A DNA stretch of 63,979 bases, the filler included, from Malassezia furfur (taxonomy: Eukaryota): the NCBI GenBank assembly GCA_052055015.1. It is 6 parts of 6 records of this genome, joined end to end, with 100 filler letters (N's around TTAATTAATTAA, not from the genome) between each part and the next. Parts side by side here need not be neighbours in the genome. Positions count along the whole stretch, not along the records: positions 1 to 11,048 come from JBQJIT010000373.1; positions 11,149 to 22,164 come from JBQJIT010000374.1; positions 22,265 to 33,279 come from JBQJIT010000375.1; positions 33,380 to 44,380 come from JBQJIT010000376.1; positions 44,481 to 55,469 come from JBQJIT010000377.1; positions 55,570 to 63,979 come from JBQJIT010000457.1. The stretch is one strand, 5' to 3'. Below, piece after piece: positions 1,778 to 63,979 of this stretch. The first letter of the stretch is position 1; each line of letters begins with the position of its first letter. The notes beneath the pieces were generated by a model. The model saw only the letters and a list, made by a program, of their open reading frames with translations. It had not been told where the DNA came from and ran no database searches. The position numbers were made by a program, and so were the translations under genes.

Positions 1778-2894
1778 GCATCACGTCGTCTCGCGTGAAC
1801 GGCACGTCCCACAGCGACACGCGCCCGTCCTTGGCGCCGGCCACAAGCAGGTGCCGCGGCACGGGGTGCGCCAGCTCCTCGTCGCTGTCCGCCTCGGGCA
1901 CGGCGAGCATGTGCACGCGGCCCTGCCGGATGTACGCCACGGCACTCACGCCTTCCTTGTGGTACACGAGCGTGGCCAGCAGCTGTGCGTCGCGTGAAAA
2001 CACTCGCACCGCACCGTCCCAGCCACCGACGGCCAGCACCCGCGCATCGTCGCGCATCGCGACGCTCGCATTACCGGGGCGCGGCAATGTCCACACCTCG
2101 GGCTGCGTGGACTCGGCCAATACACACTGTGCTAGGCGCGCATCTGCGCCGACCGACACGACGCGGTCGTGCGCGGGCGTGAGGGTTAGCGCCATGACCG
2201 ACTCTGTATGCGGCTGGTGCGACCAGCTCAGCTCAGCGTGCAGGCCCGTAGACGTCTCAGAGAGTACCCATGCCTGCACACTTCCATCCTCGTAGCCCGC
2301 CACGAGACGAAGCACTCCGTCCTCAAATGCGAGGCGCAGGCCCATTACGATCGGCGGGCGCTCCAACCCACGACCCAGTACGCCCTGGCGGCCTACGGCC
2401 TCGGCGACGCGCTTGCGTTCCGGCAACGCATACACGTCGATCCACGCCGACTCAAGAGTATTTGGGACTGCAAGCCAGCCACTGAGCTCGTCGGCGTCGC
2501 GAAGCGCCATGTCGCACGCACAGTAGTTGAGCGCATTCACGTCGAGACGGAGCAGCCGTTCGGGTGGATCAAGCTCACCACCCCATGCAGGCACCGTATC
2601 CGTCATCTTCCACACCTGCACCTGGTTATCCCGTCCATGCCTGTGTCAGCAAAGCGCACCGACGTACGTGACCAAGTAGCCGCCCCATGCGTCTGCGCGA
2701 AGCAGTGCATCTTCGTGTGCCTTCCAAAATACTCGCGGGCGGTAGTCCGACATGCTCGTTACCGAAACCCGCCCGGATGCATCGCCACATACTAGGTACG
2801 CCCCCTGGTTCACGAGTGCGACCGAATGGATCGCGGCAGGTACATGGTGTCGGACCACCCAGCTCGGTGCGGGGCTAGCTGCATGGTGCACCAT
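1758..2894 (-). CDS. ASA1: ASTRA-associated WD40 protein Asa1 (GNB1L family); intron 2641..2667 (27 nt)
   Basis: Splicing GTACGT...GCTGACACAG joins ...YLVT to HGRDNQVQVW. Motifs AGYEDG, AVGGWDG, LVYH and GAKDGRVSLW are typical of Asa1. Confidence 0.8.
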
Positions 2895-2919
2895 GATGTG
2901 GAGGTCAGCGCGAAATTTC

Positions 2920-3967
2920 ATGGCGTTTGCGTTTGGGTTCGAGGAGAGCGAAGAGGACGTCGTGCCCACCACGCAGTCCGAGGCTGCGCCGCTGCAGCCT
3001 GCGCGGTGCATCCCGGAGAGCGAACTTGTAAGCACAAAGACCCTCACACAGCGCGCTTTGCTCCCTGAGAAGCTGTCCTTCTCCCCGCTTTCGACCGCGC
3101 ACGGTCAGGAGCATGCACAACTCGCGCGGCGTGACCTATTCGACGTGCGCTTCCAGCTGCTCAATGAGGACAAGGATGTGGTCGATGCATCGACGGACCT
3201 CATTCCGGGTGTATACGAAGGTGCGTCGGCGTGCCTCTCACACAGGTGGGCTCAAGACCTGGGAGTGTGCACTGGACCTCATCACCGAGCTCGCCGAGCG
3301 CATCGCAGACTATCGTAAGCAGGACGCTTCGTGGCCTTCGGGGCGACACATTGCCGAAATCGGATGCGGAACGGCCGTGCCGACGTGCTACCTTCTGCAA
3401 ACCTTGTTGACTACCGAGTCGTCGGGCCCTACGGTAGTGGACTTGTGCGATTACAACGAACAGGTCCTGTCGCTGGTGGTGTATCCCAACCTGCTCCTCG
3501 CATGGTACTTCTCCGCCGGGCCTGGTGCCAACCGGCCCGTCGAGGCCGGCGAGCTCGAATTGGACGATGCGCTGCTTGCGCAGTTCGACGATGCGCTGCG
3601 TGCCAAACAAATTCAATTGCGATTCTTTTCGGGAGGGTGGGACACGCTCTCGATTACCGACGACCAAGTGCCGCGGGTCGACGTGCTCCTCACGAGCGAA
3701 ACAGTCTATGCAGTTCCGCGTCTCCCATCCTTATGCGACGTCTTGCAGCAGGCTTCGTGGCCGACGCTGCTCGACACGCCCAACGCTGGTCTCGCGCCGC
3801 GTACGACGCTTTGTCTCGTTGCCGCCAAAGTGCTCTACTTTGGCGTTGGGGGCGGGACGCAGGCGTTCCACATCCAGCTGGCCAGGCACCGCGGATGGAG
3901 CATCCCCTGCCGCCAGATCACCACAGGCGTTGGTCGTGTCGTGCTGCGAGTCGGGTTCGAGCCGTAA
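2920..3967 (+). CDS. HPM1: Histidine protein methyltransferase Hpm1/METTL18; intron 3221..3245 (25 nt)
   Basis: Starts MAFAFGF. Splicing restores DLIPGVYEGGLKTWECALDL. Also has EIGCGT, DYNEQVL, LTSETVY and AAKVLYFGVGGG. Confidence 0.9.
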
Positions 3968-3980: not shown

Positions 3981-4613
3981 CTAGACGTCGGATATGCTCC
4001 CTACATCGCTCATCTCGTCGTCCTCGTCGTCCTCTTCCGCATCGTTTGCATCTGTCGCAGACGCGTTTTTGCTCGCGTAGTTCGTGACATATTCGCGCAC
4101 CCTGCGATTGTATGCATCTGGGTCGCGCATCAGTAGCGCGGCTGCCTCTCCATTTAGCGGATCGGTAGGATTGGGGTATCGCAACAGCTGGGGTAGGAAG
4201 GTCTCAAAGATATTGATGCAGTCAAACATGGGTGACCACGTCTGATTGATCACATCCAGGCACACCGACCCGGATCCTTCGTCGATGTTGGGGTGGAAGA
4301 TTTTGTTCACGAAGCCGATCGACGGCGATTTGTATGGGAATTGATCCGGCAGCTCGACATGGACTCGCCACACTCCGTTCTCATAGGGTGCTAGGTGAGT
4401 GCGGGGAGACGTACTTTCGGCGGGTCCATGGAATTGCACGTAGAAGTTTTGCATATTATCATCCACGAGCGAGATTTCATAGTCGGACATGAGGCTGGGT
4501 AAGAGTCACAGATACACACAGTTTCATGACGTCCGTCTCGATGCGGCGCTTGGGCGAAGTGTAGAGGGAGGTTAGTCGCTGCTCCTGTGAGTAGGCAATG
4601 AGATACGTATCAT
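3981..4613 (-). CDS. UBC8: Ubiquitin-conjugating enzyme Ubc8/UBE2H; introns 4561..4610 (50 nt, AT-AC), 4495..4519 (25 nt), 4391..4414 (24 nt)
   Basis: Spliced N-terminus [21 protein letters not shown]. Contains [32 protein letters not shown] and an acidic tail. Confidence 0.92.
4561..4610 (-). other. Putative U2-type AT-AC intron immediately after the UBC8 start codon
   Basis: Minus strand reads ATG|ATACGTATCT...GACTAAC CTCCCTCTAC|ACT TCG CCC AAG. Of the splices I tested, only this one puts an ATG in frame with the conserved [13 protein letters not shown]. Confidence 0.8.
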
Positions 4614-4977: not shown

Positions 4978-5513
4978 ATGGAGGTGGACTCTGTGGGATC
5001 GGCACAGCTTCGAACGACGATGGAGGCCAAAGAAATCCTGGCCAACATTGCGTTTACCACGTCGGGTGCGCTCGTGGACTGTGTCGACAGTATGTGTGGG
5101 CCTCTCTGACATGCAGAAAAAGTGTTGGTGATCCTCCGCGATGGGCGCAAACTGATTGGCATTCTTCGGGCCTACGATCAATTTGGTATGTGCTCTGGCC
5201 TAACGCAGCCAACTTGCTTCTTCACGAAACGATTGAGCGCGTATACCTCGGGAATCGGTACGGCGACATCTTTAAGGGTCTCTACATTATTCGCGGTGAG
5301 AACGTCGTCCTGTTGGGTGAAGTCGACCTGGAAAAAGAAGATGAGGTGCCGGCTTCGGTGGCCTCGGCAATCCCCTCGAGCGCGGTGCCCAAGCTGCTCG
5401 AAGCGTGTGCCGCCGAGAATGAGGCAAAGGAGAAGTGGGACAAGCAGCGTGCTGCAATTCTCCGGCGGGAATGCGGTTTCTCCGGTGAGGGTGCCGAAGG
5501 GGATAGTTACTAG
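4978..5513 (+). CDS. LSM1: Sm-like protein Lsm1; introns 5090..5116 (27 nt), 5186..5208 (23 nt)
   Basis: Spliced [46 protein letters not shown]...IRGENVVLLGEVD. Confidence 0.92.
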
Positions 5514-5532: not shown

Positions 5533-6761
5533 CTATGATTTCTTCTCGCCCTCGTTGCGCTTCTCGCCCTCGTCGCGCTTCTCGCCCTCATCGCGCTTCT
5601 CACCCTCGTTGCGTTTCTCTTGCTCCACGAGCTCCTGAACGACGGTGCTAGTCTGCTCAGCGACGCTCTTTTCCTCCTCTTTGCGGATTTCGGCGGCAAG
5701 CTCGGCCTCCGACTGGCCAAGCTCCTTGATGCGTGTTGGCAGCAGCACCAACTCCACGTCGGGGATCGCCGTCTCGACCTGCGTCAGCTCGAGCCAGGCG
5801 CGCAGAGACGCAATCATCTCCTCCACAGAAATGTTGGCAGCGCGACTAAGGGTTAGTGATTCACGTACAGGCCACGCTCCGTGCATGCGTCGGCGAGGAA
5901 CTCGATCGCATCCTCGCCTGGGTCGTTGAGTAGCTTGGACGTCGCGAGACGCATGTCATCCGTACGCAAATGCGCAAGATGGCGTCCCAGACGGCGTGCG
6001 CGTAGCGCCGAACCCCCCCACGTCGAGAGGTTGTATGTCACGACAAGTTTCTGCAGCGCTTCCTTGGGAAGCGGCGCAAGAGTAGCACCGGCGGCTTGCT
6101 CCTCGTACGGCGGCTGCATGGAAGGCACGTTCTGTACCATGTCGCGAAGAGCATTGACACACTCCTCGCGCTTCAGCTCAAACCGTTTCCGGATCTTGAG
6201 GCGCTGCGACGGCAGAATGCACGTCGACGGAAGAAGGAAAGGGGTATAGATTACCATCAAGGGAAGCAATTCTTCGATGGTTATCAGGATCAGCAAAAAG
6301 AGCGGCAGCTTCAACATGTCCGAAGAGTGGGTGCGACTGAGTCAGTTACAATATACGTACAGCAGTGTAGCCTCCTCGTAGGTAAGGTCTCTCCCCGTCT
6401 CAGCCACGTTGACTTTGATTTGCTTGACCAGGTCCCTGTTCCGCCAGATCTGCTTGACACCGTTCAGGTAGAAGCGGAAGAGATACTTGACCGTCGACCA
6501 CATGTTGCTCGCACGCTCACGCAAGCTGAGCTTCTTCTTTGTCTCTGTGACCGGTTTGTTTTGCGACGACGGATCGACGTCCAGGCGCGGCACCGTCGTG
6601 TGGATCCATTGTTGCGGTGCCCACGAGCGAACAGGCGCTGCGCGCATCCCCTGCATGCCACAGAGCGCCGGACGCACTGCGATCGGCATCCCCTTGGCAT
6701 GTAGCAGCAAGGAATGCCGTATCCGCAGAGAGAGTCCCTGCGCACACATCCGGGAGCCCAT
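5533..6761 (-). CDS. Mitochondrial LETM1-like (ribosome-binding-domain) protein; introns 6337..6360 (24 nt), 5846..5868 (23 nt); start approximate
   Basis: Basic presequence-like N-terminus. Motifs FYLNGVKQIW, DMLKLPLF, EELLPL...LPSTCILPSQ, HLRTDD and ACTERGL match LETM1-domain proteins. Confidence 0.7.
5542..5620 (-). repeat. 18-bp tandem repeat (about 4 copies) encoding EKR[N/D]EG at the C-terminus of the LETM1-like protein
   Basis: Repeated cttctcgccctcgtcgcg-like units; protein EKRNEGEKRDEGEKRDEGEKRNEGEKKS. Confidence 0.85.
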
Positions 6762-6854: not shown

Positions 6855-9623
6855 TCAGTCAGTGTCGTTCGAGTCCTTGTTGCGGATTGGGACCACACGC
6901 TGGTCCTCGTCCTGCTCGCCAAAGAACACAGCAGCACCTTCGATCTGTCCCCGGGCGGTCTCGGTGTCCTCACGCTTCTGCGAGTGCGTCGAGAGCTTGG
7001 CGATGGCCTCGTCAAAGTCCATGTAGGACGTCAGCGGGCGGCTCGGCAGCGGGGTGAGCGCATGGCGTGCGTCAAGGTTGATAAATAGCACCTCGGAGCT
7101 GTGCGCACCCTCGGACACGGAAATGACGAGAGAGCGCTCCGGCTTGCCCGCCTGGGCCGACGTCATGCGGAGGTCACCGTTACTCTTGTCCTTCTCCTGC
7201 AAGGGCGACTCGCGCTCGTACACCTCGAACGTAATGCTCGAGAAGTAGTCAAGCGGCGGCAGCTGCGGCATAATCACATTCAGGTCGGACGAGAGGATGA
7301 GGTTCAGCAAGGTGTGCACGTGCGACTCCTTGGTGAAGTAAAGAGCACACAGTCCCTTCACGTCAGAGCTCTGCTTTAGGTTGCTGATGATGCTCTTGAG
7401 CAGCGGCTGTGAGGTGAGCAGACCAATCTGCTCCTTTTCATCGCGCGAAATACCATATTCGCGGGGGCATACATAGCCAAACAAAGCGAGGTTCATCCGG
7501 TACAGCTTGTGCAGCCGACCAAGACGCGGCTCTTCGTCCGGGTCAGAAAAGATGGTCTCGATGAAGGTGCGGTTGTGCAGTCCATCGTGCGAGAGCATGT
7601 CGGACAATTCGCTTGCCTGGCGTTAGTAGGTTACGTACGCGCGACGGCTCGTTAGGCTGCTCCTCAAAGTCCTGGATGAGTCTGTGTGAATAGTGTGCGT
7701 TGGGTCGACGTACTTCTCCCAGCGCTCGCGGAACAGAGCGGGCGTCTCGTGCGTGCACCATCGGTGCTGAATGCTGTCCACGTCGAGCTCGGCGTAGTTC
7801 TTGCGCATGGTCGCCTGCAGACTCAGAAGCAGCTTCTGGATTTCGGTGCCCATGTACGCGGGCGGGGGCAGATCCTCAGGCCACCCGTCAGGACGTTGGT
7901 CGGCAGTCGGCGAGTCGGGGCAGAGACTCGCCTTGAGCTCCTTTTTGACCGTGTCCATGAGGTCCTTGGCGGCATTGGAGTCGTCCAGCAAGTCTTTGCG
8001 CACGACCATTTCGCGCGGCTTGACCTCCTCGCCGTCACCAGGTGCATCGCCGTTGAGGAAGGCCGCAGCAAAGATTTCGGCGCTGGCAGAGACGCGGCGC
8101 TCTGAGGAAGTGTAGACAGTACAGTTGTTGAGTGCCTCCTTGTTCATGATGAGCATGTCGCGGCGCATGTTGGTGCCGTAGTCGCGCGCTTGGTGACGTG
8201 CGGCGTGGGAGAACTCGCCACCCCACTTGACGATGAGCTGCGTCTTTTCGAGCTCACCGGACTCCTTGCTGAAGCTGGGCTTGATCTGGATCTTGGTGCC
8301 CGGCATGTCCTTCTTGCGCCGGATGACGTCGATGAGGAAGTGCAGGTCGTCGACATTGGCGCCTGGCAGCTTAGCAGACGCCTCGAGTGCGTCAGAGACA
8401 AGCTCCAGCTGCTGACGTAGGATAATTTCCTCACGGCACCCGTGCAACAGGTTGACGATAGGCGCCGCCGCCGGGTCCTTGGCCTTGAACGAGCGCTTGA
8501 GCTTCTGCTTGGGGGTGCGATCGCCGTGGCGGAAGACGGTGACGTTCGCCTTGAGCACCCACGACGACGTTTCCTCGTGCATGCGGATGACCTGGCTCGC
8601 ACGACGCACGGGCCGAGCGATGGTGTTGGTGGTGCAGAACTGCGCGAGGATTTCGGCGCACTTGTCGTAGTATGCGTCGTTGCCCTTGACAAAACTCCAT
8701 CCGTTGACGTCGATCACGTAGCTCTTGTCCTTGACACGAAGCAAGTCAAAGCCACAGATAAACTGCTTGAACGCCAGGCTGATACTGCGCGCCATCTTGC
8801 GTTCGGACAGGGAGAGTTCGGTGATGTATCGAATTTCCTTGCCGTCCGGGTTGCGCTTCACGAGACCGTCGACGACGGGCGACTTGCGCGTCTCGGCGTG
8901 CGCAAACTCAGGACCAATGGTGTACACTTTGATGTCCTCTGCATTGTCGACGTCCATGAACTGCTCGTAGATGTACGACCCATCGGTGCGCGGCTCGACG
9001 AGGTCTGGGTCGAACTCGGACGATTTGTTGCCGACCTTGCGGAAGAGACGGCGTCCACCCCCGCCGCGGTCACGCGGGAAGTAGATGTGGATGTTGTGGT
9101 CCTCGCCGCTGACGGGTTTCTCGACAAACGGCTTGCGGATCTGCTGGCCATTGACGACGAGTGTGTCGTAGTCGAGCAGCCCAAACTCGACCGGCGTATT
9201 GCGCTCGCTCAGATTCACGCCGAGACGCAGCTCAATATCAGCAATGAGGCGCGGGTCGAGCGACGGCCCCGTGTCGCGGTCGACGTAAATGCTCGGCGGC
9301 GTGGGGACGTGAGTCGCGTGCAGGATGCGGAGCACGGCGCGGCGGTCCCAGAGCACGGTCTGCATGCTCAAGTCGTTCACGCACACGGGCTTGCGCAGCT
9401 CAACATACTGAATCGCCTTATCGAGAGGGAAGCCGGTGCTGAAGAAGGAGATGAGCACATCGACGATTGGCCAACGGTCGACGTCCTCATCGAGAATCAT
9501 CTTATCGCCGAAGTTGACGACCTCAAAGTGGCCCGTCGACAGGATGCGGTTCAGAATGTTCTGCATGGGCTTGGACCGCGCCTTGCGGTCCATCGCCGCG
9601 ACGCCGAGGCGGATCGGTTCCAT
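6855..9623 (-). CDS. VIP1: Diphosphoinositol-pentakisphosphate kinase/pyrophosphatase Vip1/Asp1 (PPIP5K); introns 7682..7713 (32 nt), 7617..7638 (22 nt)
   Basis: AMDRKARSKPM, FVEKPVSGEDHN, RRLFRKVGNKSS and IDVNGWSFVK in the kinase domain. RHGDRTPKQK, KWGGE and YFTKESH in the phosphatase-like domain. Confidence 0.95.
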
Positions 9624-11048: not shown

Positions 11049-11148
11049 NNNNNNNNNNNNNNNNNNNNNNNNNNNNNNNNNNNNNNNNNNNNTTAATTAA
11101 TTAANNNNNNNNNNNNNNNNNNNNNNNNNNNNNNNNNNNNNNNNNNNN
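11049..11148. other. Artificial contig linker N44-TTAATTAATTAA-N44
   Basis: Six-frame stop linker flanked by Ns. Confidence 0.99.
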
Positions 11149-12413
11149 AGTCGTCAATCAGGGGCATGTCGGGATGCGCAACACGGAGGTCGGGCATCTG
11201 CTCAACCTCTTTGTCGGAGTCGTCGCCGGCCACCGGCGGCGACGGCGCACGCGCTTTCGCCTTGGATGCAGCGCGCGCACGCACCGGTCGCGTAGGCTGT
11301 GCACGAAGCGAGGACGCCGGCTCGGGAGAAGCCTCAGATGCCGCAGACGCTGCTGCAGGTTCTGGTGCCGGGGGCGACGGCTCAGGGGCAGCCTCTACCG
11401 CCGCGGGTTCGTCCAGCTGCGTCTCGACGACAGATCCGCTCGCGGACGACACACGAGCGGATTTGGAGGTGTCCGCACCAGGCGGGCTATGTGCAGCATC
11501 CGCATGATCGTGCGTGGTCGGTGCATCAGACACGTCGCCGCCGTCGGCCTGCACCTCAGGACTTGGCTCGTGCGCTTCCAAGGCAGCCGGCGCTGCCTCG
11601 GCGGGTGCCTCACTCGCCGGCGCTGTATTTTCCTCGACTGTCTCGTGCTCAGGCACATACGCATCGTCGCTCGCGTCCTCTTCGTCGCCATCACCGCTCT
11701 CATCGCCGCTGGAGTGGTTGTGTGCATCTCGTTGACGACTGCCGACGCGGCTCTTGGCCTTTCGTCGACCGCCGGCCGCTGCGCGCTTGGGCCCGCGCGG
11801 CACCTCGTCGTCCTCAAACGAGTCTGTATCGTCAAGTGATCGCTTATGCGTGTCCGAGGTGCGTGATGCGGCGTCGGGCGTCGTTGAAGGGCTGCTGTCG
11901 TCGAGTGCATCGGCAAGGATGCAGTGGAAAAAGGGACACTGCGGGCGTCGCCGTTGGTGTTCATGGCTGTGTGAGACAGGTGACATACATTGGGTCGTCG
12001 CTGCGCTCCCACCCGCCGAGCTCGACGCCGCAGTAAATACAGGTGCATCCGTCGTCTTCGCCGCTCCCTGGTGTAAAGTGGAATCCAGCTTCGGCGAGCT
12101 GTGTCAGCGACCCACATACCTTGTTGCTCGTCGGCCGCCACCCGCGCCGACCCGTGTATGGCCAGCGTTCATCAAACGTTGCCTTGCGCGCCGAGATCAT
12201 CACGGCGCCGTTCGGAAGGAGGTCGGCGTCGTGCCAGACATAGAGGGTATCGTCTTCGTTCACGGCGCTGTCGCCGCTCCCCGTGCTGAGGCGCGCGACG
12301 CCGCCACGCATCACGCGCGGCTGTCCGGCCTGCTTGCTCTTCTCGAGGTGCGCAAGCACGTCGACGCCCTTCCAGCGCGACGCACTCGCTGCGCTCCGCC
12401 CACGTCCCCGCAT
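11149..12413 (-). CDS. BIR1: BIR-domain chromosomal passenger protein Bir1/survivin (3'-truncated); introns 12099..12119 (21 nt), 11967..11988 (22 nt)
   Basis: Spliced BIR domain ARKATF..WP...KLAEAGFHF...CIYC..ELGGWERSDDPIHEH.RRRPQCPF, followed by a low-complexity region. Confidence 0.85.
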
Positions 12414-12455: not shown

Positions 12456-13328
12456 CTATGTGGCTTTGGCATGGCGCTCGGCCTCCTTCTCGGAGGCGAG
12501 TGGCGCGGGCTTGGCAGGGGTGGACCAGAGGTACGTGAACCACGAGGGCCGGGACCGTCGCTGCGCCTCGAGTTTTTCCTTGCGCTTGCGCTCGAACGCA
12601 TTCCGGTACCGCTCGTAGCCGTCGCGGAAGCTGGCATGCACGCGCGACGAGAATAGAATCTCGCCACGCTCGTTGTGGGTTGGGGGGACAGGCTGGATGG
12701 GTGTGCGCCGCTGGAATAGGCGACGGGGCCCGAGCGATGCGGTGTCATTTTCGTTGGGGATGTGCGAAGGCGTTGCACTGGGCGACGCCGCCGTCTTGCG
12801 CCAGAACAGCAGCGGCGCAAGCCAGCGTGGGGGCCGCGAGACGGTGCGCATGTTGAGGTACATATTAAACGTCCAGAGTGCGCGGTTCGCCTGCGGGACG
12901 AAACTGGGTCAGTTCAGCGACGCACTTCTTCGCGGCGGTGATGCGGTCTGCGTAGATGCCACTGGCAAAAAAGAGGAACAGCATCGTGCAGCAGACCATC
13001 AAAAGCCCAATGCGGAGGTAGTGTAGGAGCCAGTGCTAAGTGTGAGGGCATGTCGGGGATGCGTACGCACCTGGGACGGCTGGTACAGCACGTAGTACAC
13101 GAGCGTCATGATCACGGCACATAACAGAGCCAGAAACACTGTGTTAGGCATGCCCCACATACTCTGGTACTTGTTCTTGCGTGCCTTGAGCCGTGCCGAG
13201 TTCTGTTTGAGCCGCTCTTCGAATATGAGCAGGTCACGATAGACGGCCGCATTCGCCGGCGGCGGGAAGCTGGCCATTGATCCCTGCTGTGTCTGATGTG
13301 GGCGTGCAGAGGCATTCGCCATGGTCAT
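12456..13328 (-). CDS. SPO7: Spo7 regulatory subunit of the Nem1 phosphatase; introns 13139..13162 (24 nt), 13036..13070 (35 nt), 12904..12925 (22 nt)
   Basis: YRDLLIFEERLK, two hydrophobic segments, FFASG.Y..RI, FVPQANRAL..FNMYLN, and FRDGYERYR. Confidence 0.85.
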
Positions 13329-22164: not shown

Positions 22165-22264
22165 NNNNNNNNNNNNNNNNNNNNNNNNNNNNNNNNNNNN
22201 NNNNNNNNTTAATTAATTAANNNNNNNNNNNNNNNNNNNNNNNNNNNNNNNNNNNNNNNNNNNN
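22165..22264. other. Artificial contig linker
   Basis: N44-TTAATTAATTAA-N44. Confidence 0.99.
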
Positions 22265-44380: not shown

Positions 44381-44480
44381 NNNNNNNNNNNNNNNNNNNN
44401 NNNNNNNNNNNNNNNNNNNNNNNNTTAATTAATTAANNNNNNNNNNNNNNNNNNNNNNNNNNNNNNNNNNNNNNNNNNNN
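44381..44480. other. Artificial contig linker
   Basis: N44-TTAATTAATTAA-N44. Confidence 0.99.
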
Positions 44481-44484
44481 TCGC

Positions 44485-49470: not shown

Positions 49471-50278
49471 CTAGTCCCGCTTGAGCGGGCGGTGGATGAC
49501 CATACATGCGCCCGACGTGTACGAGTCCTCCCCACCAACGGCTTCGACCGCACCCATCGCGGCAAGGTCAATGTCCGCAGCACGCGGACCACTTGCGTCT
49601 CCGTCGCTTTTTGGTGCCAGCGAGCGCACGACAAAAATGTCAAGGCCATCGCCGACTTCGATATGGCGCTCGGTCGCGGAGGTGAAGGAGTCCAGGGTGA
49701 TTTTCAGCGTTTCTTCGAGCGGCAAGTGCCCCGGTGCAGGGATTTCACGGCCAGGAGTCGCGTTCTGGTTCTTGAACAACACCTGGTTGTCCAAGAACGG
49801 CTGGATCAGCCCCTCGGCTGCCCCCGCCGCATTGCACACGAGGCGCTCGACGGTGCCGACGGGGTCGTAGCTGAACACCGCGCCGCGGCCTTGCTCATCG
49901 ATCCCTCCCAGGATGTTGTGAACATAGTAGGGGAAGAACCGCTTGCTGTACAGAATCGTCGAAAGCATGCGTGCGATGGAATGCAGGGGCATCGAGCGAT
50001 TGTGCTGGTATTGGTACAGTTCCAGACGCTGCCGAACACGAGACACCAAAGCCTCGGCATCAGCTGCGAACCCGTCCGTGGCAAGCGTCGCCTTGTCGGT
50101 TCTGTGGTGAGCGGCTTTGTACGTACAGACGAAACACTTTGGGCTTGTGCCGGGTTTGGATATTGTATCCCTCGCTCTGGCGCGTGTCACCGGCAATCAC
50201 GCAGTAGTCCTCGCCGTGAATGGCAAGGATGGAGCCGCCATTCGATGTATATGGGTTGAATTGGTGACCGACGGGCAT
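49471..50278 (-). CDS. PRE7: 20S proteasome beta6 subunit; intron 50102..50126 (25 nt)
   Basis: FNPYTSNGGSILAI, AGDTRQSEGY, LYSKRFFPYY, QPFLDNQV, SATERHIEVGDG and terminal LKRD. Confidence 0.95.
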
Positions 50279-50641: not shown

Positions 50642-52530
50642 TTAACGCGGATCGGGCGAAGGTTGATGGTGGTTTTCGCCGTTATGCTCGAGCGCCTCCT
50701 TGATCATGCTCACCGTCGATTCGATAGATCGCCGGCGGTTCGAGGGCGACGACATGGTCGTTCCCAGGGAGCTCGTCCGCGAATGGCCACGGCGGTGCGA
50801 AGAGGGCATGCGTGGCTCCAGCACGGGCGTTGACCTCCCCGACGAGCTGGGAGAGGCGAGCTCGACGCGCGAGCCCACCGGCATGTTGGACATCGATCCG
50901 GAGATGTTGGCGTCGATGAGCTGCGGCGGCAGGCGCTCGTTTTCAATGTCCACCTTACGTGCCTCGTCAAAGGTCTGAATGGCGTTTTTGATGCCCTCCG
51001 AGCCGAGAGCCAGCGTCCCATAGGGTAACTTTCCGGTGCCCGAAGCCACCTTGAGCTCTGACACACGCTCTGCCTCCTCACGGAGTACGGAGAAGACGCG
51101 CGACATGCGTCCCACTGCGAGGATCTTGTTTTTGATGACCGAACGGCGCTCGAGGAAGTCGTCGCTCTGATCGGCATAACCGGCCCCCGTGATTGCCGGT
51201 ACGGGACTGGGCCTCGACGGCGTTTCTTGCTCCAACAGGAGAGAGTTGTCCTCTTCCTCAGCCTCCTCGAGCTCCTCTTTGCTGCAGATGTTCAGGATGG
51301 CCATCAGCATGTCGGTCACCTTTTCACCCACAAAGGGCAGACTCCATGTGAACACGTCCATGAAGTTGGGCAGCCAGTAGGGGTGCGGTGTACAGTTGAA
51401 CTGGCGGATGTTCATCACATTGTTTTCGTATTTGAGCACGGCGGCCTTGTTGTTGTACACATCAAGGTAGTTAGGAGCCGAGAAAATGGTCATCACCGAC
51501 GGGAATCCGGTCACTTTTGTCTTGCGGTACATGCGGTAGCCTGCGTCTTGCGCCTCATGCGCGCGGATGATGGAGAGCAGATTGTTTCGCTCCAGGAACT
51601 GGCAGGCGGCGTTGTACGTGAAGAAGTAAGAGCAGCCACGCACATGGTTGTGCATAAAGCTCTCGTTTGTCTTTTCCTGGCCAAACTCTTCCAGCGGGTC
51701 GGCCCAGAGCAAGTCGCAGATGAGCCCATGCGTCGGCGGCTCACGGAAGCGATTGACCGCGCGCAGGTCGTCAAGCGTCTGCAGCTCAGGCGAGAGACCG
51801 CCGTGGATGCACAGGAACTGCTTGTTCATCACCGCACCGAGCGGTAGTGCGCAGAACGACTCCATGCACAGGTCGTAAATCTCTTCCGAGTACTTGTGCT
51901 TGCACTCCAGCTTGAACGTGAAGTAGTCGGTCAAATGCCGACACTCGTGGTTGCCGCGCAGCAAGAACAGCGAGTTGGGGTACCACAGCTTCAACGTCCA
52001 CAAATACAATACGCACTGGGTTAGCCACCGTCGCAACGTACCTCGATGGAGAAGTAGCCACGATCGACATAGTCGCCGAGGAACAGGTAGCGTGTATCCG
52101 CCGGGTTCCCGCCCACCTCAAACAACTTCATCAGGTCATAGTACTGCCCATGAATGTCGCCACACACAGTGATGGGCGCATCGAGTTCAAGAAGGTTGGG
52201 CTCTGCACGCAGCAATTCGGTGGCTTTGGTGAGGATATACTTGGCCTGGTCATCGGTCAGTCGACCCTCACGGTAGAAATGGTTCTTGAGGAACTGTGCA
52301 TCGGGCTTGGTCGGGTCCTTCTTGCTCCAGAACTGCTCAGGCGTGGGTTTATGGAAGGCGGGCGCTTGCACGTCGCGAATCACGCGCTCGCGGGTCGAGA
52401 CTTGTTCGCCATCTTCAGTCGTGTGTATGGTGAAGTCAATGTCTGGAACAGGTCCCTTGTGGGTGATCTGTCCCAGCGCATTGTGTATGCGCTGACGCCT
52501 TTGCATCGTCTCCGCGTGCGCGTCGCTCAT
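50642..52530 (-). CDS. CNA1: Calcineurin catalytic A subunit; intron 52016..52041 (26 nt)
   Basis: [40 protein letters not shown], calmodulin-binding [15 protein letters not shown] and autoinhibitory [16 protein letters not shown]. Confidence 0.96.
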
Positions 52531-53295: not shown

Positions 53296-54872
53296 ATGGC
53301 CTCCCAGCGCAAACAGGACGTGGACGCGTTGCTCGCGGACCTATCGTTCGAATCAAAGCCCCGTACGGCCAGCGTATCGCCTAGGTCAACGCAACCGCGT
53401 GCACAGGCAAAGGGCGAGGATGTTCAAAGCTTGCTGGATGACCTCGAGGGGCTCGTGCAGCGTCGTCGCTCTCACGGTGAAGCGCGCGAAGCTTCGGCCG
53501 CTGTATCCGCGCAGGCCAACGCAGAACGCCCCTTGTCAGGGAAGCAGACGCCCAATGTCTCCGGTGTACGCACGCCAAGCATGACTGGCCCGCGCACGCC
53601 CAGCCTCTCGAGCACGCGTGTACCAAGCCGGTTCGCGAGCCCCACACCGGCCTCGAGTGACCGCGCATCCCAGGACTCCTTCCAGCCTCCTGCAGCGCAG
53701 GTGGCTTCGACAGTGCCACAGGCCACGCCTGTGGCCACTGCTCAAGAATCCAGTACAGAATCGGCGCCGTCGTCAAGTGCAGCGAGGCCCACCGAAAGCA
53801 TGCCGGCGGACTCGACGCTGTCATCGTGGGGCCAATGGGGCGGCAGTTGGTTCTCGAATGCGACACGCATTGCTGACCAGGCACGGCATGAACTAGAGCG
53901 ACGCGCCGCAGCTGTTGTGCAAAAAGCCCCTCCTATGGAGTCGGGCGTGCAACAACCCATTCAGGATATCGGGAACCGATTTGCAGAGCGCTTCCGTGGG
54001 CTAGTCAAGGATGCCGGCTTGGACTCGCTCGGCCAAAACCTCACTGCGGCAGGGCGTCGTGGGTGGTCGGACATTGTGAATGCAGTGGCCCCCCCTATGG
54101 AGGCGCACGAGTCGGTGGATGTGACTCTCAGTCATGGTACGTTGTGCATACTCCATCTCATCCAGACATGCTCGGCTACGACGGCATCGAGTCGCTTGCC
54201 TTCAAGGTGCTTTCCCGCATCCTGCAACAGGCCGATATCACACAGGTGGACGTACACACCGTGTCTTCTGAAAAGGCGGCGGCGCAGGATGATCAGCCGG
54301 CGCAGGCATTGCACGTCGCTGCCAGCCGGAGCGAGGGCATTGCACAGGCCAAGGTTCGTTGCGCTTCGACTGACACACAGGCGGCGATTGTGCCCTTGTC
54401 CAGCAACGTTCCCGCTCGATCTTCGACACAACAGGAAAACACACTGACCGTGCCTGACTCGACATGCCCAATTGTGCTGCGCCTGCAGCCATTCTATGAG
54501 TCGGCAGTGCCGCACGATGCGGACCTCTTTGGCGAGGCGCCGACGTCCACCACGGGCGCACCTGTCGATACCAACCGGGGCGTATCCTTCCTGGTGTGGT
54601 GGGTGGACCCCACGTACCGCCTAAGCCATGCAACGATCAGCCAGGCGATTCCGGCATGGTGGTGTACGTGTCACTATGCTGACCCAGTGACAGTGCCGTT
54701 GGAACACAACGTGTGGGTGGAGCAGGCCATGTGTGATGCCATTGAAGGCGCATTTGCCGTTGTCGCACAAGTAAGTTGGGACCGTCGCGGTGTACTGACG
54801 GTACAGGATTACGTGCAGAGCCGACTGGCTACATTCAAGCAAGCTATCTCAGCAGCTCAGAATAGCGGGTGA
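53296..54872 (+). CDS. MTC1: Maintenance of telomere capping protein Mtc1; introns 54137..54165, 54354..54380, 54664..54687, 54771..54806
   Basis: N-terminal LLDDL motifs, WGGSWFS, spliced IVNAVAPPMEAHE...LSHDMLGYDGIE, LRLQPF, SQAIP.WW and AQDYV..R. Confidence 0.8.
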
Positions 54873-54924: not shown

Positions 54925-55164
54925 TTACTTCACCTTGTCGTAAAGCTCGCAAGAGAGGAACTTCTCGCCGTTGATATAGTAGAAGACCTCGACCTGGCGT
55001 TAGTATGGCGAATCTGCTTTCCGGTACGTACGCCGCCGCCGATCTTGGGCTCGATCTTCTCAATCTTGCCCTCCTTCAGGTCGCCGCCGAAGGGGCGGTC
55101 TGTTGTTAGTATGTCGTGTATCGTCCAACGTACACTGCACAACATCACCCTCCTGGTAGAACAT
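54925..55164 (-). CDS. 55-aa Tudor/SH3-like microprotein (possibly Hva1-TUDOR related); introns 55100..55133 (34 nt), 54994..55031 (38 nt)
   Basis: Both introns are GTACGT...TACTAAC...CAG. Exons of 31+68+69 nt give MFYQEGDVVQYRPFGGDLKEGKIEKIEPKIGGGVEVFYYINGEKFLSCELYDKVK*, with strongly C/G-ending codons. Confidence 0.8.
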
Positions 55165-55469: not shown

Positions 55470-55569
55470 NNNNNNNNNNNNNNNNNNNNNNNNNNNNNNN
55501 NNNNNNNNNNNNNTTAATTAATTAANNNNNNNNNNNNNNNNNNNNNNNNNNNNNNNNNNNNNNNNNNNN
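55470..55569. other. Artificial contig linker
   Basis: N44-TTAATTAATTAA-N44. Confidence 0.99.
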
Positions 55570-56149
55570 TCGAGCGGCTCGACAAGGAAAACCCGCTGCT
55601 GGGCTCGACCCAGGAGAGGCGCGCACGCTTCTTCAAGGTACGCGGCGCATGACTGACGCAGCAACCACAGACGGAGCAGGAGTAGAGCAATTCTCTTCGT
55701 TATCAATGGACTAACGCAACGTGTGTGAAGGTCGAGTGCGCCAAGCCGTCAGATGCAGGACCCTGTCACTCGGTATGGGTGGGGGCATGACTCAGGCCAC
55801 GCACGACCGTCTTGGCGTGTGCCGTACGCTGGTCAGACGCCGATGCGGTCAAGGCAAAACATGGTCAGGTAGGCCGGCAGGGTCAGACGAGCTGCATGGT
55901 CCGAGTGCCCAGACGACATGGACGGGCAGCTGCCTCCTTCGTAGGACGCAGTCTACGTAGTTGTACCTGTCAGGTTCACGAGAGAGTGCTACGGCGTGTC
56001 ATTGTCGGCCACGACCATGCCCACGGATGGCCAATGGGCGTCCTGCAATTTCCAAAATTCGCCCAATTTCGCTAAGCTGTCCAGCTGTTGCCCGGGGGGT
56101 GCGAGGGGGTCTTTGCACTGGACAAGTCCAGATGCCACTGCCTACCTAT

Positions 56150-58996
56150 TTACGCAAGAAACTGGTTCTCCTTGAGCCAGGCCGCAACGTCCTCCTTGTC
56201 GGCCTCAAGCCACTTGGCCTGCGCACGGATCGAGTCGAGGCTCTGCGCAAGGCTCATGCTGAACTTGGACGTGTCATGCTTCGCAAAGAAGGCCTCGATC
56301 TCGTCCGCATCGCGCGTGCTCGAGAACACGCTCACCGAGTAACGGATCAGGTTGGCCAGCGAGAAGTTGCCTTCGAAGCGGTTCACGAGGTGGTCAAAGT
56401 CCTTCTGGAAGCGCTCCAGCAGCGCACGGCGCGCATCGACGTTCGAGGAGAGCGCCACGAAGAAGTACATGATGTCCTGCGTCTTGACCTTGCCGCCAAA
56501 CACGAAGTCGAGCGTGCGCTGGATCAGCTTGGGGTCGCGCGCACAGCCCAGCGCGTACATGGCCGAGGTCTTGTGCGCGGGCGTGTCGGGGTGGTCGTAC
56601 ACCTTGAACGCCGTCTCGTACTCGGCCTCTCCGCCGTGGCGCACACCTTGCGAGAGCACCGTGCGGAGCAGGTCGGGGTGGATCTGGCTGTCGTCGCTGC
56701 TGTCCCGCAGCGGCGCAAAGCGCAGCATGATCTGCTCGAGCGTCCACGCGTCGCCGGCGGCGGCCGCGGCGCTGATCACCGTCGTGCGCAGCTCACGCAG
56801 GTCCGTCGAGTCGTTCTCGCCGAACTCGAACGAGAGCTCGCGTGCGAGCGGGCCAAAGATGGACGCGCGGAACGCGTTGATCGCGTTGCGCACCTCCTTC
56901 GGCTGCTCCCACCAGACGCTCGAGAGCGACGCCAGGTTCTGCGAGAAGGCCTGGTTCACCAGCGAGCTGAGGTCGTGGCCGCCGAGCAGCTTGGTGAGCG
57001 TCAGCGCGCTCGACGTGCGCGTGTAGTTCGCCTGCGCAAGCTTCCACGCATCGCTCACAAGCCCGACGCGGTCCTCAATGGTGAGCGGCGAGTCCTTCTG
57101 GGCGGCGACCTTGCCGAGGAGTGCCAGGCGCTCAGGGGTGTAGGCCACGCGGTAGACGCCGATCGTGTCGGCGTTCAGCTTCCACACGGCGTCCTTGGCG
57201 TTGGCCAGGGGGATGCGCTTCTCGCGCTCGCCCTCCAGCGCGAGGTCGTAGTCGACCTCGACGCCGCCCTTGCCGGCCTGCTTCAAGGCGAGCGGCACAT
57301 ACCACAGCGTGGCGTCCTCCTCGGCCGAAGGGTCGTCCGTCGAGAGGAAGCGGTTCTGGCGCACCACGAGGCCGTCGTTGTCCTCGGTGACCGTCAGCAC
57401 AGGGAAGCCCTGCTTCAGGATCCAGTTCGACATGATCGCATCGACGTCGCGGCCGGACGCCTTGCTGATGCCATCCCAGAGGTCACGCGTCACGGTGTTG
57501 CCGTAGAGGTGCTTCTTCAGGTAGAGGCTCACGCCCTTCAAAAAGGTCTCCTCGCCGATCACCTGCGACAGCATGCGGAGCACACTGGCACCCTTGGAGT
57601 ACGAGATGGCGTCAAACACCTGGTTGATCGCGTGCTCCACGTCGTCGCCCTTCAGCGGGATCTCGACGGGGTGCGACGAGCGCTTCGCGTCCAGCTCCAG
57701 CGCACGGTTCAGGTGATCGTTGATAAACTGGCTCGCGCTCTTCCACTCGGGGAAAACGCGGTCGAGGATGATCACCTCGCCCATGAGCGTCGCAAACGCC
57801 TCGTTGAGCCACAGGTTGTCCCACCACGCGAGCGTCGCAATGTCGCCGAACCACATGTGGGCCACCTCGTGGCTCTGGACGCCGGCGGTGAGCTTCTTGC
57901 CGGCCAGGCCGCTCTTCTTGTCGTACAAGAAGATGCTCGTGCGACCCGTAATCAGGCCCCAGTTCTCCATCGCGCCCGCGTCAAAGTCGGCCGCGACGAG
58001 CGTGTCAAGCTTCGGCAGGGGGTACTCCACATCAAACACCTTTTCGTACACCGGCAGGATGCGCTCCTTGACCTCGAGCGCAAACTGCGCCTGGTGGATG
58101 TACTCGGGCGTGGTGTAGACACGCATCGGCACCTTGCGGCCCGTCAGCGGCGAGGTGTAGGAGCCCTCGATGTACTTAAACTCACCGTTGCCCCAGGCGA
58201 CCAGGTAGGTCGACACCTTGGGCGTCGTCGCAAACTCGGTCACCTTCCACGACCCCTGGCCGAGTTCGGGCGCCGCAAAGTGCAGCGCGTCGACGAGCAG
58301 CGCGTCGTGGACGCCCTGCGTGTCGAGCGCACGCTCCTTCTCGGCAGGCATGTTGGCGAGCGCCGTCGTGTCCTGGCGGTGGATCATGCGCATCGTGTAC
58401 GTCGCCTTCAGCTCTGGCTCGTCCCACGACGGGAACGCACGGCGCGCCGACGTCGGCTCGAACTGCGTCAACGCATAGTTCGCCTTGCGGCCCTCGTGCT
58501 CCCACGAGGAGCGGTAGTAGCCCATCATGCTGTCGTCGATCTCGCCACGGAACGCGGCCGTGAGCGTGACCTTGGCGCCCTTGGGCAGCTCCTTCTTCAA
58601 CGACACGGTGGCCCGCTCGTGCTGGGCGTCGTGCGCGGGCGACACCTGCTCGCGGTGTCCGTCGTACGAGACGACGACGTCGCTCAGCTCGAGCGCCTTG
58701 CCGGCGTTGAAGACGATCTTGTTCGTGGCGTGCTGCACCTCGAGCGAGATGTCCGCGGCGCCCTGGAAGCGCAGGCGCTCCAGGTCAGAGAGGATGGTGA
58801 GGTCGTAGTGCGTCGGACGCACGTCCGTCGGCAGACGGAACCATTGGGATTCGTCAGTCGTGCTCATTTGGGCGATACGAGCAGGGGTAGAGAAGCCGAG
58901 AGGGGTAAGAATTCGCTGCACAAGGAACGAAGCAAAGAGAAGGATCACGGAAAGCAAAGACGTGGATTCGGTTTCAGCACCTGTCGGCAATCGCAT
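56150..58996 (-). CDS. M1 zinc aminopeptidase (Ape2/puromycin-sensitive type), paralog 1; alternative start 58867
   Basis: FRLP..V.P.HYDL, TQFEP, GAMEN, HEVAH-x18-E, ISYSKG and an ERAP1-like C-terminal domain. Confidence 0.95.
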   Translation of the reverse strand: MRLPTGAETESTSLLSVILLFASFLVQRILTPLGFSTPARIAQMSTTDESQWFRLPTDVRPTHYDLTILSDLERLRFQGAADISLEVQHATNKIVFNAGKALELSDVVVSYDGHREQVSPAHDAQHERATVSLKKELPKGAKVTLTAAFRGEIDDSMMGYYRSSWEHEGRKANYALTQFEPTSARRAFPSWDEPELKATYTMRMIHRQDTTALANMPAEKERALDTQGVHDALLVDALHFAAPELGQGSWKVTEFATTPKVSTYLVAWGNGEFKYIEGSYTSPLTGRKVPMRVYTTPEYIHQAQFALEVKERILPVYEKVFDVEYPLPKLDTLVAADFDAGAMENWGLITGRTSIFLYDKKSGLAGKKLTAGVQSHEVAHMWFGDIATLAWWDNLWLNEAFATLMGEVIILDRVFPEWKSASQFINDHLNRALELDAKRSSHPVEIPLKGDDVEHAINQVFDAISYSKGASVLRMLSQVIGEETFLKGVSLYLKKHLYGNTVTRDLWDGISKASGRDVDAIMSNWILKQGFPVLTVTEDNDGLVVRQNRFLSTDDPSAEEDATLWYVPLALKQAGKGGVEVDYDLALEGEREKRIPLANAKDAVWKLNADTIGVYRVAYTPERLALLGKVAAQKDSPLTIEDRVGLVSDAWKLAQANYTRTSSALTLTKLLGGHDLSSLVNQAFSQNLASLSSVWWEQPKEVRNAINAFRASIFGPLARELSFEFGENDSTDLRELRTTVISAAAAAGDAWTLEQIMLRFAPLRDSSDDSQIHPDLLRTVLSQGVRHGGEAEYETAFKVYDHPDTPAHKTSAMYALGCARDPKLIQRTLDFVFGGKVKTQDIMYFFVALSSNVDARRALLERFQKDFDHLVNRFEGNFSLANLIRYSVSVFSSTRDADEIEAFFAKHDTSKFSMSLAQSLDSIRAQAKWLEADKEDVAAWLKENQFLA

Positions 58997-59456: not shown

Positions 59457-60143
59457 CTACGAGGTCCTTTGCAATGGGCGGCCGTCGATCATCTCGTCGA
59501 TCACTTGGATCATGCGCCGCTGCTTTGCCAACGCTTCGGGGTCATTCGTCTCGTAAAACAGGGGGAGCCCCAGCTGGATGAGCACCGCACGTACCTCCTC
59601 CATTGTGATCTGCTGCGCCCGCTGAAGATCGTCCCAGCGCCGAAGCACCTCCCATAGCCAGCGAGCATGCCTTGCTTGGTTGCGTCCGCCCCTGCGTGAG
59701 TGCCTGAAGACGTACTCAGGGCCGCGCAGGTTCTCGCCGTCTCTCCCTATAATCTCTGTGCGCTCCTTGGCCAAGGTACGTTCGAGCTCATGCTGGGCCT
59801 GGCGCATCTGGGTAAGGCATACACGTACGTCACGTAGCTGGGCGGCCACACCTGCGTCCTTCATCCTCTCCTTGAGTTTGGGCAGCGCATCCACAAACGT
59901 CATTTTCCGTGGATCGTCTTTGGGTTTCGCCGGCGCCATGGGATGGCCATGCAGCGTAGGCTGCCATGGGTCGTAGGCCTCTTCGATGGTATCCCGCAGA
60001 AACGCAGGTCGTTTGGGCGCCGCAGCCCAGGGACGATGGGCTCGCTGCGACTCCTGCGGCGGTTGTGCGGCCGCCTTCTCCGCGGCGTCGTCCTGCTCCC
60101 GCAACTTGGTGAGCAATGCCCGCACGCCGCAGGGGTCGTCCAT
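59457..60143 (-). CDS. DUF2458-like conserved fungal protein; introns 59808..59828 (21 nt), 59692..59715 (24 nt), 59574..59594 (21 nt)
   Basis: DPRKMTF.DALP, M...QHELE..L..ER, W..L...QQ..ME.LGLP.F..T.D...L.KQRR. Three GTACGT...CAG inserts with branch sites. Confidence 0.7.
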   Translation of the reverse strand: MDDPCGVRALLTKLREQDDAAEKAAAQPPQESQRAHRPWAAAPKRPAFLRDTIEEAYDPWQPTLHGHPMAPAKPKDDPRKMTFVDALPKLKERMKDAGVAAQLRDVRVCLTQMRQAQHELERTLAKERTEIIGRDGENLRGPEYVFRHSRRGGRNQARHARWLWEVLRRWDDLQRAQQITMEEVRAVLIQLGLPLFYETNDPEALAKQRRMIQVIDEMIDGRPLQRTS

Positions 60144-63067: not shown

Positions 63068-63155
63068 GGCGAGGCGCCCGGCCATAGACGTTGAGGCTCC
63101 CCCCGCGCGCGTTTCCGTACGCGTGTGGAGGTCGACTTCCTGCGAAGATTGTGCC

Positions 63156-63979
63156 ATGCCGCCGGAGCGCTCTGGCCGCGCGAACAAGCGCCGACGCGTC
63201 GAAGGCGGCGAGCACCAGCGGCACCGCACGCGCCTTGCGACCGTTCTGAATGTGCCTGAGGCGAGCGGCGTGTTCATGTCGTGTGCGCGTGGCAAGGAAC
63301 GCAAGGCCGCGATGGATCTCGTCGAGGTCCTGAGCGAGGTACGGCGCGCGACTCACGCAGCACTCGGCCGCGCTGTATGGCGATGAAGACGCAGCACCCA
63401 AAGAGGCCGACGGCAAGGCTGGCGAGCCGGCGCCGTCCGCCTCGGACGACATCGAGGCACAGATCCGCGGCGAGCTCGCCGCGTTGCGGGCGCCGCGCAA
63501 GCAGTCGACGCGCGTCACGGCGCTCGACACCGATACGGAGTGCATGTGCTTTGTGCAGTGCACGCCGCCCGTGGACGCCGCGCGCGTCGTGGGGCGCGTC
63601 CTGGAAGACGTGATCAGGACGGGCGAGTCGCGCTCGCGCTTTGTGCAGCGTCTCGCGCCGGTCGACGCGCTGTGCCGCGCCGAGGTCGATGCGATCCGCG
63701 CGACGGCGACGCAGGTGCTGCCGCGCTACTTCCCCGCGGACCGGCCGCGCACGGTACGTGCCTGGGTGCTGACGCAGTACCGCATCGAGCCGCGCATCCG
63801 GTCGCACACGTCGCTCTCGCGCGACGTCCTCATCCCGCTCGTGGCCTCGTGCATCCCGGATTCGGCGGCGCACCGCGCCGACTTGGCGCACCCCGAGGTC
63901 GTGATCCTCGTCGAGGTGCTCAAAAACGTGTGTGGCATCGGCGCCGTGGAGGACTACGAGCGGCTCGGCAAGCTCAATG
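63156..63979 (+). CDS. TAN1: THUMP-domain tRNA acetylation adaptor Tan1 (3'-truncated by window); introns 63339..63360 (22 nt), 63754..63777 (24 nt)
   Basis: GVFMSCARGKERKA, DIEAQIRGEL, RFVQRLAP, YRIEPRIR and H.ADL.HP..VILVEVLKNVCGI. Confidence 0.88.

Follow-up and report, generated by a model that had tools for sequence, protein, structure and literature searches.

Two questions are raised by this stretch of DNA: are the many very short segments that interrupt its reading frames spliceosomal introns, and, if so, what sets their lower size? The window, meaning here the whole analysed stretch of 63,979 nucleotides (nt) from Malassezia furfur (assembly GCA_052055015.1), is a composite of six genome pieces of approximately 11 kilobases, with five N44-TTAATTAATTAA-N44 linkers between them (11049-11148, 22165-22264, 33280-33379, 44381-44480 and 55470-55569). 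Because the window is composite, genes on either side of a linker are not genomic neighbours, and because six separate places were sampled, the label "genome-wide" that an initial annotation gave to its introns is a fair one. The guanine-cytosine (GC) content of the window is approximately 64%, and all named database relatives of its proteins belong to Malassezia. One small protein had 83% identity to M. furfur and 79% to M. brasiliensis, and the relatives of the GH5 enzyme were from M. vespertilionis, M. cuniculi and Malassezia sp. CBS 17886 (64-69%).

The evidence comprised sequence, homology and literature, including five related metagenome loci (L001-L005); four of these (L001, L002, L003 and L005) are syntenic with the window, 71-76% identical and of 50-55% GC. 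This analysis confirmed as real the predicted introns of 21-27 nt, which pepper the window and follow one fixed plan.

Census and geometry of the short introns

A total of 49 intron candidates were found in the window, with a median of 24 nt and a shortest length of 21 nt (four of 21 nt, nine of 22, six of 23, nine of 24, four of 25, four of 26, three of 27 and ten of 28-42 nt). The initial annotation had likewise called 49 introns with a median of about 24 nt, four of 21 nt and nine of 22 nt; its figure of 26 introns of 24 nt or shorter needs correction, as our census counts 28 of 49. Candidates of 30 nt or shorter (41 of 49) were spread over the six genome pieces, and the narrow distribution with a median below 30 nt is that of ultra-short introns. 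We classed candidates as obligatory where a frame shift or an in-frame stop lay between coding exons, and 36 of the 49 were of this class, which bears out the earlier claim that several must be removed. Six more matched exact gaps in homologues, three had weaker support and four were observed by motif only; support beyond the motif was thus found for 42 candidates, including all four 21-mers, and in these 42 a conserved, open reading frame is regained on removal.

All 49 candidates begin with GT and end with AG, partly by construction, as both of our searches required GT and AG. The donor was most often GTACGT (28 of 49), followed by GTATGT (6) and GTGCGT (5), with G at +5 in all 49 (the pattern demanded it), T at +6 in 43 and A at +3 in 42. 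A YTNAY branch box was also present in every candidate (CTGAC in 16, CTCAC in 14, CTAAC in 10), including three introns found outside the strict pattern given below. No polypyrimidine tract was found between branch and acceptor, where at most 9 nt follow the branch adenosine (A); the spacer is 50% pyrimidine. Such tracts are weak or absent in many fungi, and this absence is therefore compatible with U2-type membership. The earlier description was thus reproduced: these are GT-AG introns in which the donor is extended, the branch box reads CTNAY and a tract would not fit.

We measured the distance from the intron 5' end to the branch A, that is, the position of the A (d1), and the number of nt after the branch A to the 3' end (d2). 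Values of d2 were 5 in 34 introns, 6 in seven, 7 in five, 8 in two and 9 in one, with none below 5. Values of d1 were 16 in six introns, 17 in eight, 18 in five, 19 in eleven and 20 in six, with a thin tail to 33, and none of the 49 introns had a d1 below 16. The six introns at 16, all independently supported, are those that had been placed there before: the four 21-mers and the VIP1 22-mer, each on the minus strand as described, and the LETM1-like 23-mer (5846..5868). The claim that no branch A lies closer to the donor also held; a 23-nt match that would have its A at 15 looked like an exception but is coding sequence. A d1 of at least 16 was also observed among the 15 introns with d2 above 5, which speaks, if weakly, for the 5' arm and not the total length as the limited quantity. 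The strongest regularity is a fused 3' module, CTNAC-N-CAG, with length varying almost only in the 5' arm. The earlier emphasis on 16 nt between donor and branch was right in that this spacing is seen, but it underplayed the more constant feature, the 5 nt from branch to end.

Intron GC was 57%. Nineteen of the 49 lengths were multiples of three, 11 of these without an in-frame stop, and no depletion of the ciliate type was observed. A phase-0 copy left in the transcript would have L-T-Q as its last residues, as encoded by the 3' module CTGAC-N-CAG.

The strict pattern consisted of GT[AG]NG[TC], a spacer of zero or more nt, YTNAY, 0-9 nt and YAG, with d1 allowed down to 10. It matched 80 times in the window, with 52 matches of 30 nt or shorter, compared with 12.2 +/- 4.2 in third-order Markov simulations (n = 30) and 21 in the reversed sequence. 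Matches sharing an acceptor were collapsed and placed on 35 gene spans totalling 55,577 nt, leaving 43 short matches in sense and 3 in antisense orientation within these spans and 1 outside genes. Six of the 43 sense matches were coding, in line with the chance level. The 49 candidates and the evidence for each are as follows.

2641..2667, minus: 27 nt, WD40 gene; in-frame stop, and a 26-nt intron at the same place in the L001 orthologue
3028..3051, plus: 24-nt in-frame candidate, gene 2920-3967; motif, with a longer insert containing an in-frame stop at the L002 site; weakly supported
3221..3245, plus: 25 nt, gene 2920-3967; frame-shifting join, spliced protein colinear with L002
4495..4519, minus: 25 nt, E2 ubiquitin-conjugating enzyme gene; frame-shifting join to an 8-nt first exon
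4391..4414, minus: 24 nt in-frame, E2 gene; exact 8-residue gap against solved E2 enzymes 8pmq_E and 2onu_A (both of the two alignments printed)
5090..5116, plus: 27 nt, LSM gene; in-frame stop when retained
5186..5208, plus: 23 nt, LSM gene; Pfam LSM profile split 9-31 / 32-65 over two open reading frames (ORFs)
6337..6360, minus: 24 nt, LETM1-like gene; in-frame stop when retained
5846..5868, minus: 23 nt, LETM1-like gene, branch A at 16; frame-shifting join, L002 intron at the same junction
7682..7713, minus: 32 nt, VIP1 gene, before a 43-nt micro-exon; spliced protein colinear with L001, L002, L003 and L005 ORFs
7617..7638, minus: 22 nt, VIP1 gene, branch A at 16; His_Phos_2 split 2-207 / 237-345, colinear with intronless orthologues
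11967..11988, minus: 22 nt, BIR-domain gene; frame-shifting join
12099..12119, minus: 21 nt in-frame, BIR domain, branch A at 16; 7-residue gap in homologues (116 of 145)
13139..13162, minus: 24-nt in-frame candidate, Spo7 gene; Spo7 match 8 residues longer than the profile part it covers (64 against 56); weakly supported
13036..13070, minus: 35 nt, Spo7 gene; frame-shifting join between Spo7 profile parts
12904..12925, minus: 22 nt, Spo7 gene; frame-shifting join, Spo7 profile 102-207 downstream
14527..14548, plus: 22 nt, Sec10 gene; frame-shifting join of 368- and 124-codon frames
14810..14831, plus: 22 nt, Sec10 gene; frame-shifting join, Sec10_HB domain downstream
18020..18041, minus: 22 nt, MscS-like channel gene; frame-shifting join of 284- and 573-codon frames
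22856..22879, minus: 24 nt in-frame, SYF1 gene; exact 8-residue gap against human SYF1 5mqf_M, 10-residue gap against 9l5r_I
22367..22389, minus: 23 nt, SYF1 gene; frame-shifting join
27918..27938, minus: 21 nt with in-frame TGA, GH5 gene, branch A at 16; all 14 full-length orthologues contiguous
26807..26828, minus: 22 nt, GH5 gene; frame-shifting join of Cellulase and GH5_C parts
34224..34246, plus: 23 nt, gene 34048-34901 (matches no family); frame-shifting join
42606..42631, plus: 26 nt, sortilin/VPS10 gene; frame-shifting join, Sortilin_C continuing in the next ORF
45325..45347, minus: 23 nt, methyltransferase gene; frame-shifting join, with an alternative donor 9 nt upstream giving 32 nt in the same frame
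45615..45637, plus: 23 nt, HAD hydrolase gene 1; best, gapless alignment with the neighbouring paralogue
45719..45744, plus: 26 nt, HAD hydrolase gene 1; same paralogue alignment as 45615..45637
46025..46049, plus: 25 nt, HAD hydrolase gene 1; frame-shifting join
47034..47075, plus: 42 nt, HAD hydrolase gene 2; in-frame stop, position as in paralogue 1
47157..47195, plus: 39 nt, HAD hydrolase gene 2; in-frame stop, position as in paralogue 1
49065..49099, minus: 35 nt, ubiquilin-like gene; ubiquitin profile split 1-35 / 36-71
48965..48990, minus: 26 nt, ubiquilin-like gene; frame-shifting join
48523..48544, minus: 22 nt, ubiquilin-like gene; frame-shifting join
48167..48194, minus: 28 nt, ubiquilin-like gene; frame-shifting join
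50102..50126, minus: 25 nt, proteasome subunit gene; Proteasome profile split 2-42 / 41-154
52016..52041, minus: 26 nt, metallophosphoesterase gene; Metallophos profile split 2-47 / 49-189
54137..54165, plus: 29 nt, DUF5427 gene; DUF5427 profile split over two frames
54354..54380, plus: 27-nt in-frame candidate, DUF5427 gene; called by the gene finder only, donor T at +3; motif only
54664..54687, plus: 24-nt in-frame candidate, DUF5427 gene; motif only
54771..54806, plus: 36-nt candidate with no clear gene context; motif only
54994..55031, minus: 38 nt, small unnamed putative gene; frame-shifting join, open 56-residue product
55100..55133, minus: 34 nt, same small putative gene as 54994..55031; frame-shifting join, open 56-residue product
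55638..55661, plus: 24-nt candidate outside modelled genes; motif only
59808..59828, minus: 21 nt in-frame, branch A at 16, gene 59457-60143; exactly its 7 residues missing from the M. brasiliensis orthologue
59692..59715, minus: 24 nt in-frame, gene 59457-60143; both named orthologue models lack exactly these 8 residues
59574..59594, minus: 21 nt in-frame, branch A at 16, gene 59457-60143; exactly its 7 residues missing from the M. brasiliensis orthologue
63339..63360, plus: 22 nt, THUMP-domain gene; frame-shifting join
63754..63777, plus: 24-nt in-frame candidate, THUMP domain; THUMP match of 88 residues for 81 profile positions; weakly supported

A search of solved structures with the THUMP ORF gave no matches.

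Gene-level evidence and rejected candidates

Pfam domains were split at candidates over adjacent ORFs for Metallophos, His_Phos_2, LSM, ubiquitin, Proteasome, Spo7, Sortilin_C, GH5 and DUF5427. For in-frame candidates free of stops, read-through translations were queried against relatives for gaps. In the BIR-domain gene, 145 of the 150 homologue representatives examined span the site of the 21-mer, and against 116 of these the query had a net excess of exactly 7 residues (8 in twelve, 6 in eight, 0 in six, 5 in two and 11 in one). The gap fell mostly at residues 107-113, the translation of 12099..12119. In the GH5 gene, the exon upstream of the 21-mer is homologous to the N-termini of all 14 full-length orthologues, from basidiomycetes and ascomycetes, and the 7-residue insert was present in none of them (a fifteenth sequence is truncated). 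A second GH5 gene, intronless (29663-31834), lies near the intron-bearing one, and the alignment of these two paralogues is weak.

The VIP1 gene (6855-9623) had introns in none of the five related loci, where it gave a single continuous match (10001-12670 in L001-L005). Its spliced protein, with the 32-nt and 22-nt introns removed and the 43-nt micro-exon between them (7639-7681, minus) kept, was colinear with the uninterrupted ORFs of all four loci checked, and the micro-exon is backed by these intronless orthologues. Micro-introns of the LETM1-like, LSM and WD40 genes and of gene 2920 were observed at partly different positions across the related loci, which suggests that introns may have been gained or lost rapidly within the genus.

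Public models disagree for gene 59457-60143. The M. brasiliensis model lacks all three segments (two 21-mers and the 24-mer), while the M. furfur model GLX27_001628 drops the 24-mer only and translates both 21-mers as 7 extra residues each; an ORF-type entry retains all three, and a fourth entry is out of frame after the second. The conflict between the M. furfur and M. brasiliensis models probably stems from the minimum intron length set in annotation pipelines. This gene is flanked by two M1 aminopeptidase paralogues (56150-58996, minus; 60242-63067, plus), both intronless, which face away from each other.

For HAD gene 1, the model with the 45615..45637 intron scored 687, against 638 and 582 for the alternatives, and was gapless with its paralogue. 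The tandem HAD paralogues (45564-46408 and 46983-47834, plus) agree in where introns 1 and 2 lie and in having a second exon of 81 nt, with differing intron lengths (23 and 26 nt versus 42 and 39 nt).

We also predicted genes with a codon model trained on Pfam-supported ORFs, which permitted introns of at least 12 nt and did not favour any length below 100 nt. In the window it called 41 introns, none shorter than 21 nt. Five of its "introns", of 129-182 nt, are likely mis-joins; two of them lie in continuous ORFs, and for one of the five, alignment with the paralogue put two short introns in its place. Borders were imprecise when splice motifs were left out of the model, and self-trained gene finding on L001-L005 called few introns. 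Long antisense shadow ORFs were common in the GC-rich DNA of the window and misled our first ORF lists. The MscS-like channel frame 34929-38066 (minus) overlaps an antisense MADS-box (SRF-TF) gene at 37110-38627 (plus).

Several matches were rejected as introns. The 18-nt match at 23780..23797 in SYF1 is coding, with encoded residues identical in human SYF1, and the 23-nt match at 45682..45704 in a HAD gene, whose A would be at 15, is coding by paralogue alignment; the latter was the sole apparent breach of the 16-nt floor within the window. At 52144..52167 (24 nt) the Metallophos match shows no excess residues, and removal of 38845..38864 or 56519..56544 would break long frames. An in-frame match of 30 nt (44623..44652) was treated as coding by default, and short variants nested in a longer intron with a common acceptor were dropped.

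The related loci contained 31 frame-restoring strict matches, many of them orthologous copies or nested variants. Strict matches shorter than 21 nt numbered ten, of which six were nested in longer candidates, one was antisense to a 1091-codon ORF and one was conserved coding sequence. Two apparent breaches of the floor among the 31 were set aside: the first is nested, and the frame upstream of it is conserved less well than with the 23-nt form, while orthologous copies of the second put the branch box at position 19. The minimum d1 in L001-L005 was then 17.

The lower edge at 16 nt and its explanations

We consider it highly probable that these are ordinary U2-type GT-AG introns shrunk to three nearly abutting modules, with the lower edge at 16 marking the least spacing that the spliceosome of this lineage would tolerate. 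The proposed modules are a six-base donor (GTRYGT), a branch box (CTNAY) and an acceptor (YAG), with a distance of usually 5 nt from the branch A to the 3' end; nothing but the stretch that separates donor from branch box varies, and it sets intron length. The shortest combination, 16 nt from the 5' end to the branch A plus 5 nt, gives 21 nt. With a d1 of 16 and a branch box of 7 bases, approximately four bases would stay free after the donor hexamer, plausibly the minimum that lets both pair with small nuclear RNAs (snRNAs). As 3' site, the spliceosome is likely to take the first YAG that lies a set distance beyond the branch, not one chosen by U2AF, because a 5-nt tail leaves no room for a pyrimidine tract.

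Several points weigh against this reading. The branch A was called from its motif alone, four of the 49 candidates are motif only and three are weakly supported, and chance would be expected to supply approximately 3-6 matches on the sense strand. The floor rests on six introns at d1 16 among 49, together with approximately 15 distinct introns from the related loci. Two strict matches shorter than 21 nt in L002 were left without a nested, antisense or coding assignment, and rarer, shorter introns could exist genome-wide. Furthermore, 16 would be specific to this lineage and not a general limit, because heterotrich ciliates place the A at position 10.

It is possible, although we doubt it, that the introns are real and the 16/21-nt floor is the tail of a smooth distribution in a small sample, and that introns of 17-20 nt, or introns whose branch is closer, occur more rarely elsewhere in the genome. 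The counts at d1 15 to 19 (0, 6, 8, 5 and 11) are not tail-like, each testable shorter candidate failed, and the gene finder with its 12-nt minimum needed no intron below 21 nt; yet only 49 introns were available, six of them at d1 16, the two L002 matches stand, and introns of 15-21 nt are spliced in other eukaryotes. Aligners have a default minimum near 20-21 nt, which could hide shorter introns from published annotations.

The initial annotation supposed that U1 and U2 probably cannot bind at the same time, which is reasonable as geometry. A second alternative is accordingly non-canonical early assembly, in which the U1 small nuclear ribonucleoprotein and U2/SF3 could not occupy the intron together and recognition would be sequential or use reduced factors, with no U2AF-type recognition of the 3' site. 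This seems improbable: the geometry speaks for it (d1 down to 16, d2 of 5, spacer 50% pyrimidine), but SYF1, the sole splicing factor in the window, aligns over its full length with human and fungal SYF1, the splice signals are strong and conventional, and an Rfam search over the window gave no matches and hence no snRNA to examine. Only tentatively, and as an unlikely extension of the shrunken U2-type reading, would we propose a hard limit made of a 16-nt lariat loop and a 5-nt tail, with co-occupancy of U1 and U2/SF3 impossible, sequential or reduced-factor assembly and a 3' site set purely by distance. If this were true, Malassezia would be the first genetically tractable yeast model of ultra-short intron recognition, because it can be cultured and transformed, as described in the literature available to us.

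That the stop-free in-frame elements of 21 and 24 nt are short coding insertions resembling splice signals is very improbable, for although 11 of the 49 are multiples of three without a stop, GLX27_001628 and the ORF-type entry translate the two 21-mers, and six chance motif matches were found in coding sequence, the borders equal the gaps of distant homologues to the residue, the M. brasiliensis orthologue lacks all three segments of one gene, and one 21-mer of the same build (GH5) has a stop.

Malassezia introns and other ultra-short systems

Very short introns are already known for the genus, and this is not a new kind of system. In M. sympodialis 5350 introns were listed with a mean of 30 base pairs (bp), 99% of them supported by RNA sequencing (Zhu et al. 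2017, PMC5389616, Table 2), and in M. restricta the median is 30 bp, annotated with a minimum intron of 15-20 (PMC6473144, PMC9241646). A review, in the part available, calls Malassezia introns "very short", and a fungal intron survey, likewise available in part, classes M. sympodialis as intron-poor. The statement in the initial annotation that Malassezia introns are short therefore stands, with this published record underplayed.

The available parts of the M. sympodialis and M. restricta papers give means and a cumulative plot, and no branch geometry, branch-to-acceptor distance or lower limit was found in them. A literature search on Malassezia introns and splicing, with subscription papers and image supplements outside it, brought up no paper that treats branch geometry, the splicing machinery or a length floor. 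The accessible portion of a 2026 survey of ultra-short introns names ciliates, microsporidia, dicyemids and myxozoans but does not list Malassezia, which seems to have drawn little notice in this respect beyond fungal genomics. A sharper description, not found in print and drawn from the sequences of a small sample, is given by the fixed 5-nt tail together with the apparent 16-nt limit.

These introns bear on how introns shorter than the footprint of the early complex are spliced, a matter so far studied, in the sources available, in a few parasites and in ciliates, nucleomorphs and microsporidia. Because donor, branch and acceptor are all explicit here, both arm lengths can be read from sequence and altered base by base in a transformable yeast. 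There is also a practical consequence: some public gene models translate stop-free in-frame introns of 21 and 24 nt as 7-8 extra residues, and Malassezia annotation for this reason needs minimum-intron settings well below 21.

Compared with the other Malassezia species above, M. sympodialis and M. restricta, the window comes from the same genus and has the same trait, but is richer in GC (64%) and has a median of 24 nt. For Ustilago maydis the median intron length is 95 nt, and the branch consensus, at 29.5%, is weak (PMC2483917).

The heterotrich ciliates Blepharisma and Stentor have 15-bp GT-AG introns in a narrow length range, like the ultra-short introns of the window, and a conserved A at position 10 of 15, which is 5 nt from the 3' end, as here (PMC13685798). 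By this analogy, tails may in general need at least 5 nt. Their 5' arm is 10 nt, whereas that of the window is at least 16, and their introns are AT-rich with a short GTAA donor (PMC13685798), whereas those of the window have a GC content of 57%, a donor of six bases and a CTNAY box that is explicit. Introns with lengths in multiples of three are depleted in most ciliates but not in the window. The nucleomorph of Bigelowiella natans has introns of 18-21 bp, similar in length and with a sharp length window; these have no discernible branch A or other motif, and a 'caliper' model was proposed for them (PMC6009652), whereas a branch box was found in all 49 introns here. The closest likeness in 3' architecture is to the intron-poor eukaryotes of Irimia and Roy 2008 (PMC2483917), in which a strong WCTRAYN-type branch stands at a fixed distance from the 3' site, as in the window, where d2 was constrained to 5 in 34 of 49 introns (range 5-9). 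Malassezia was not included in that study, and in the window both intron arms are minimal.

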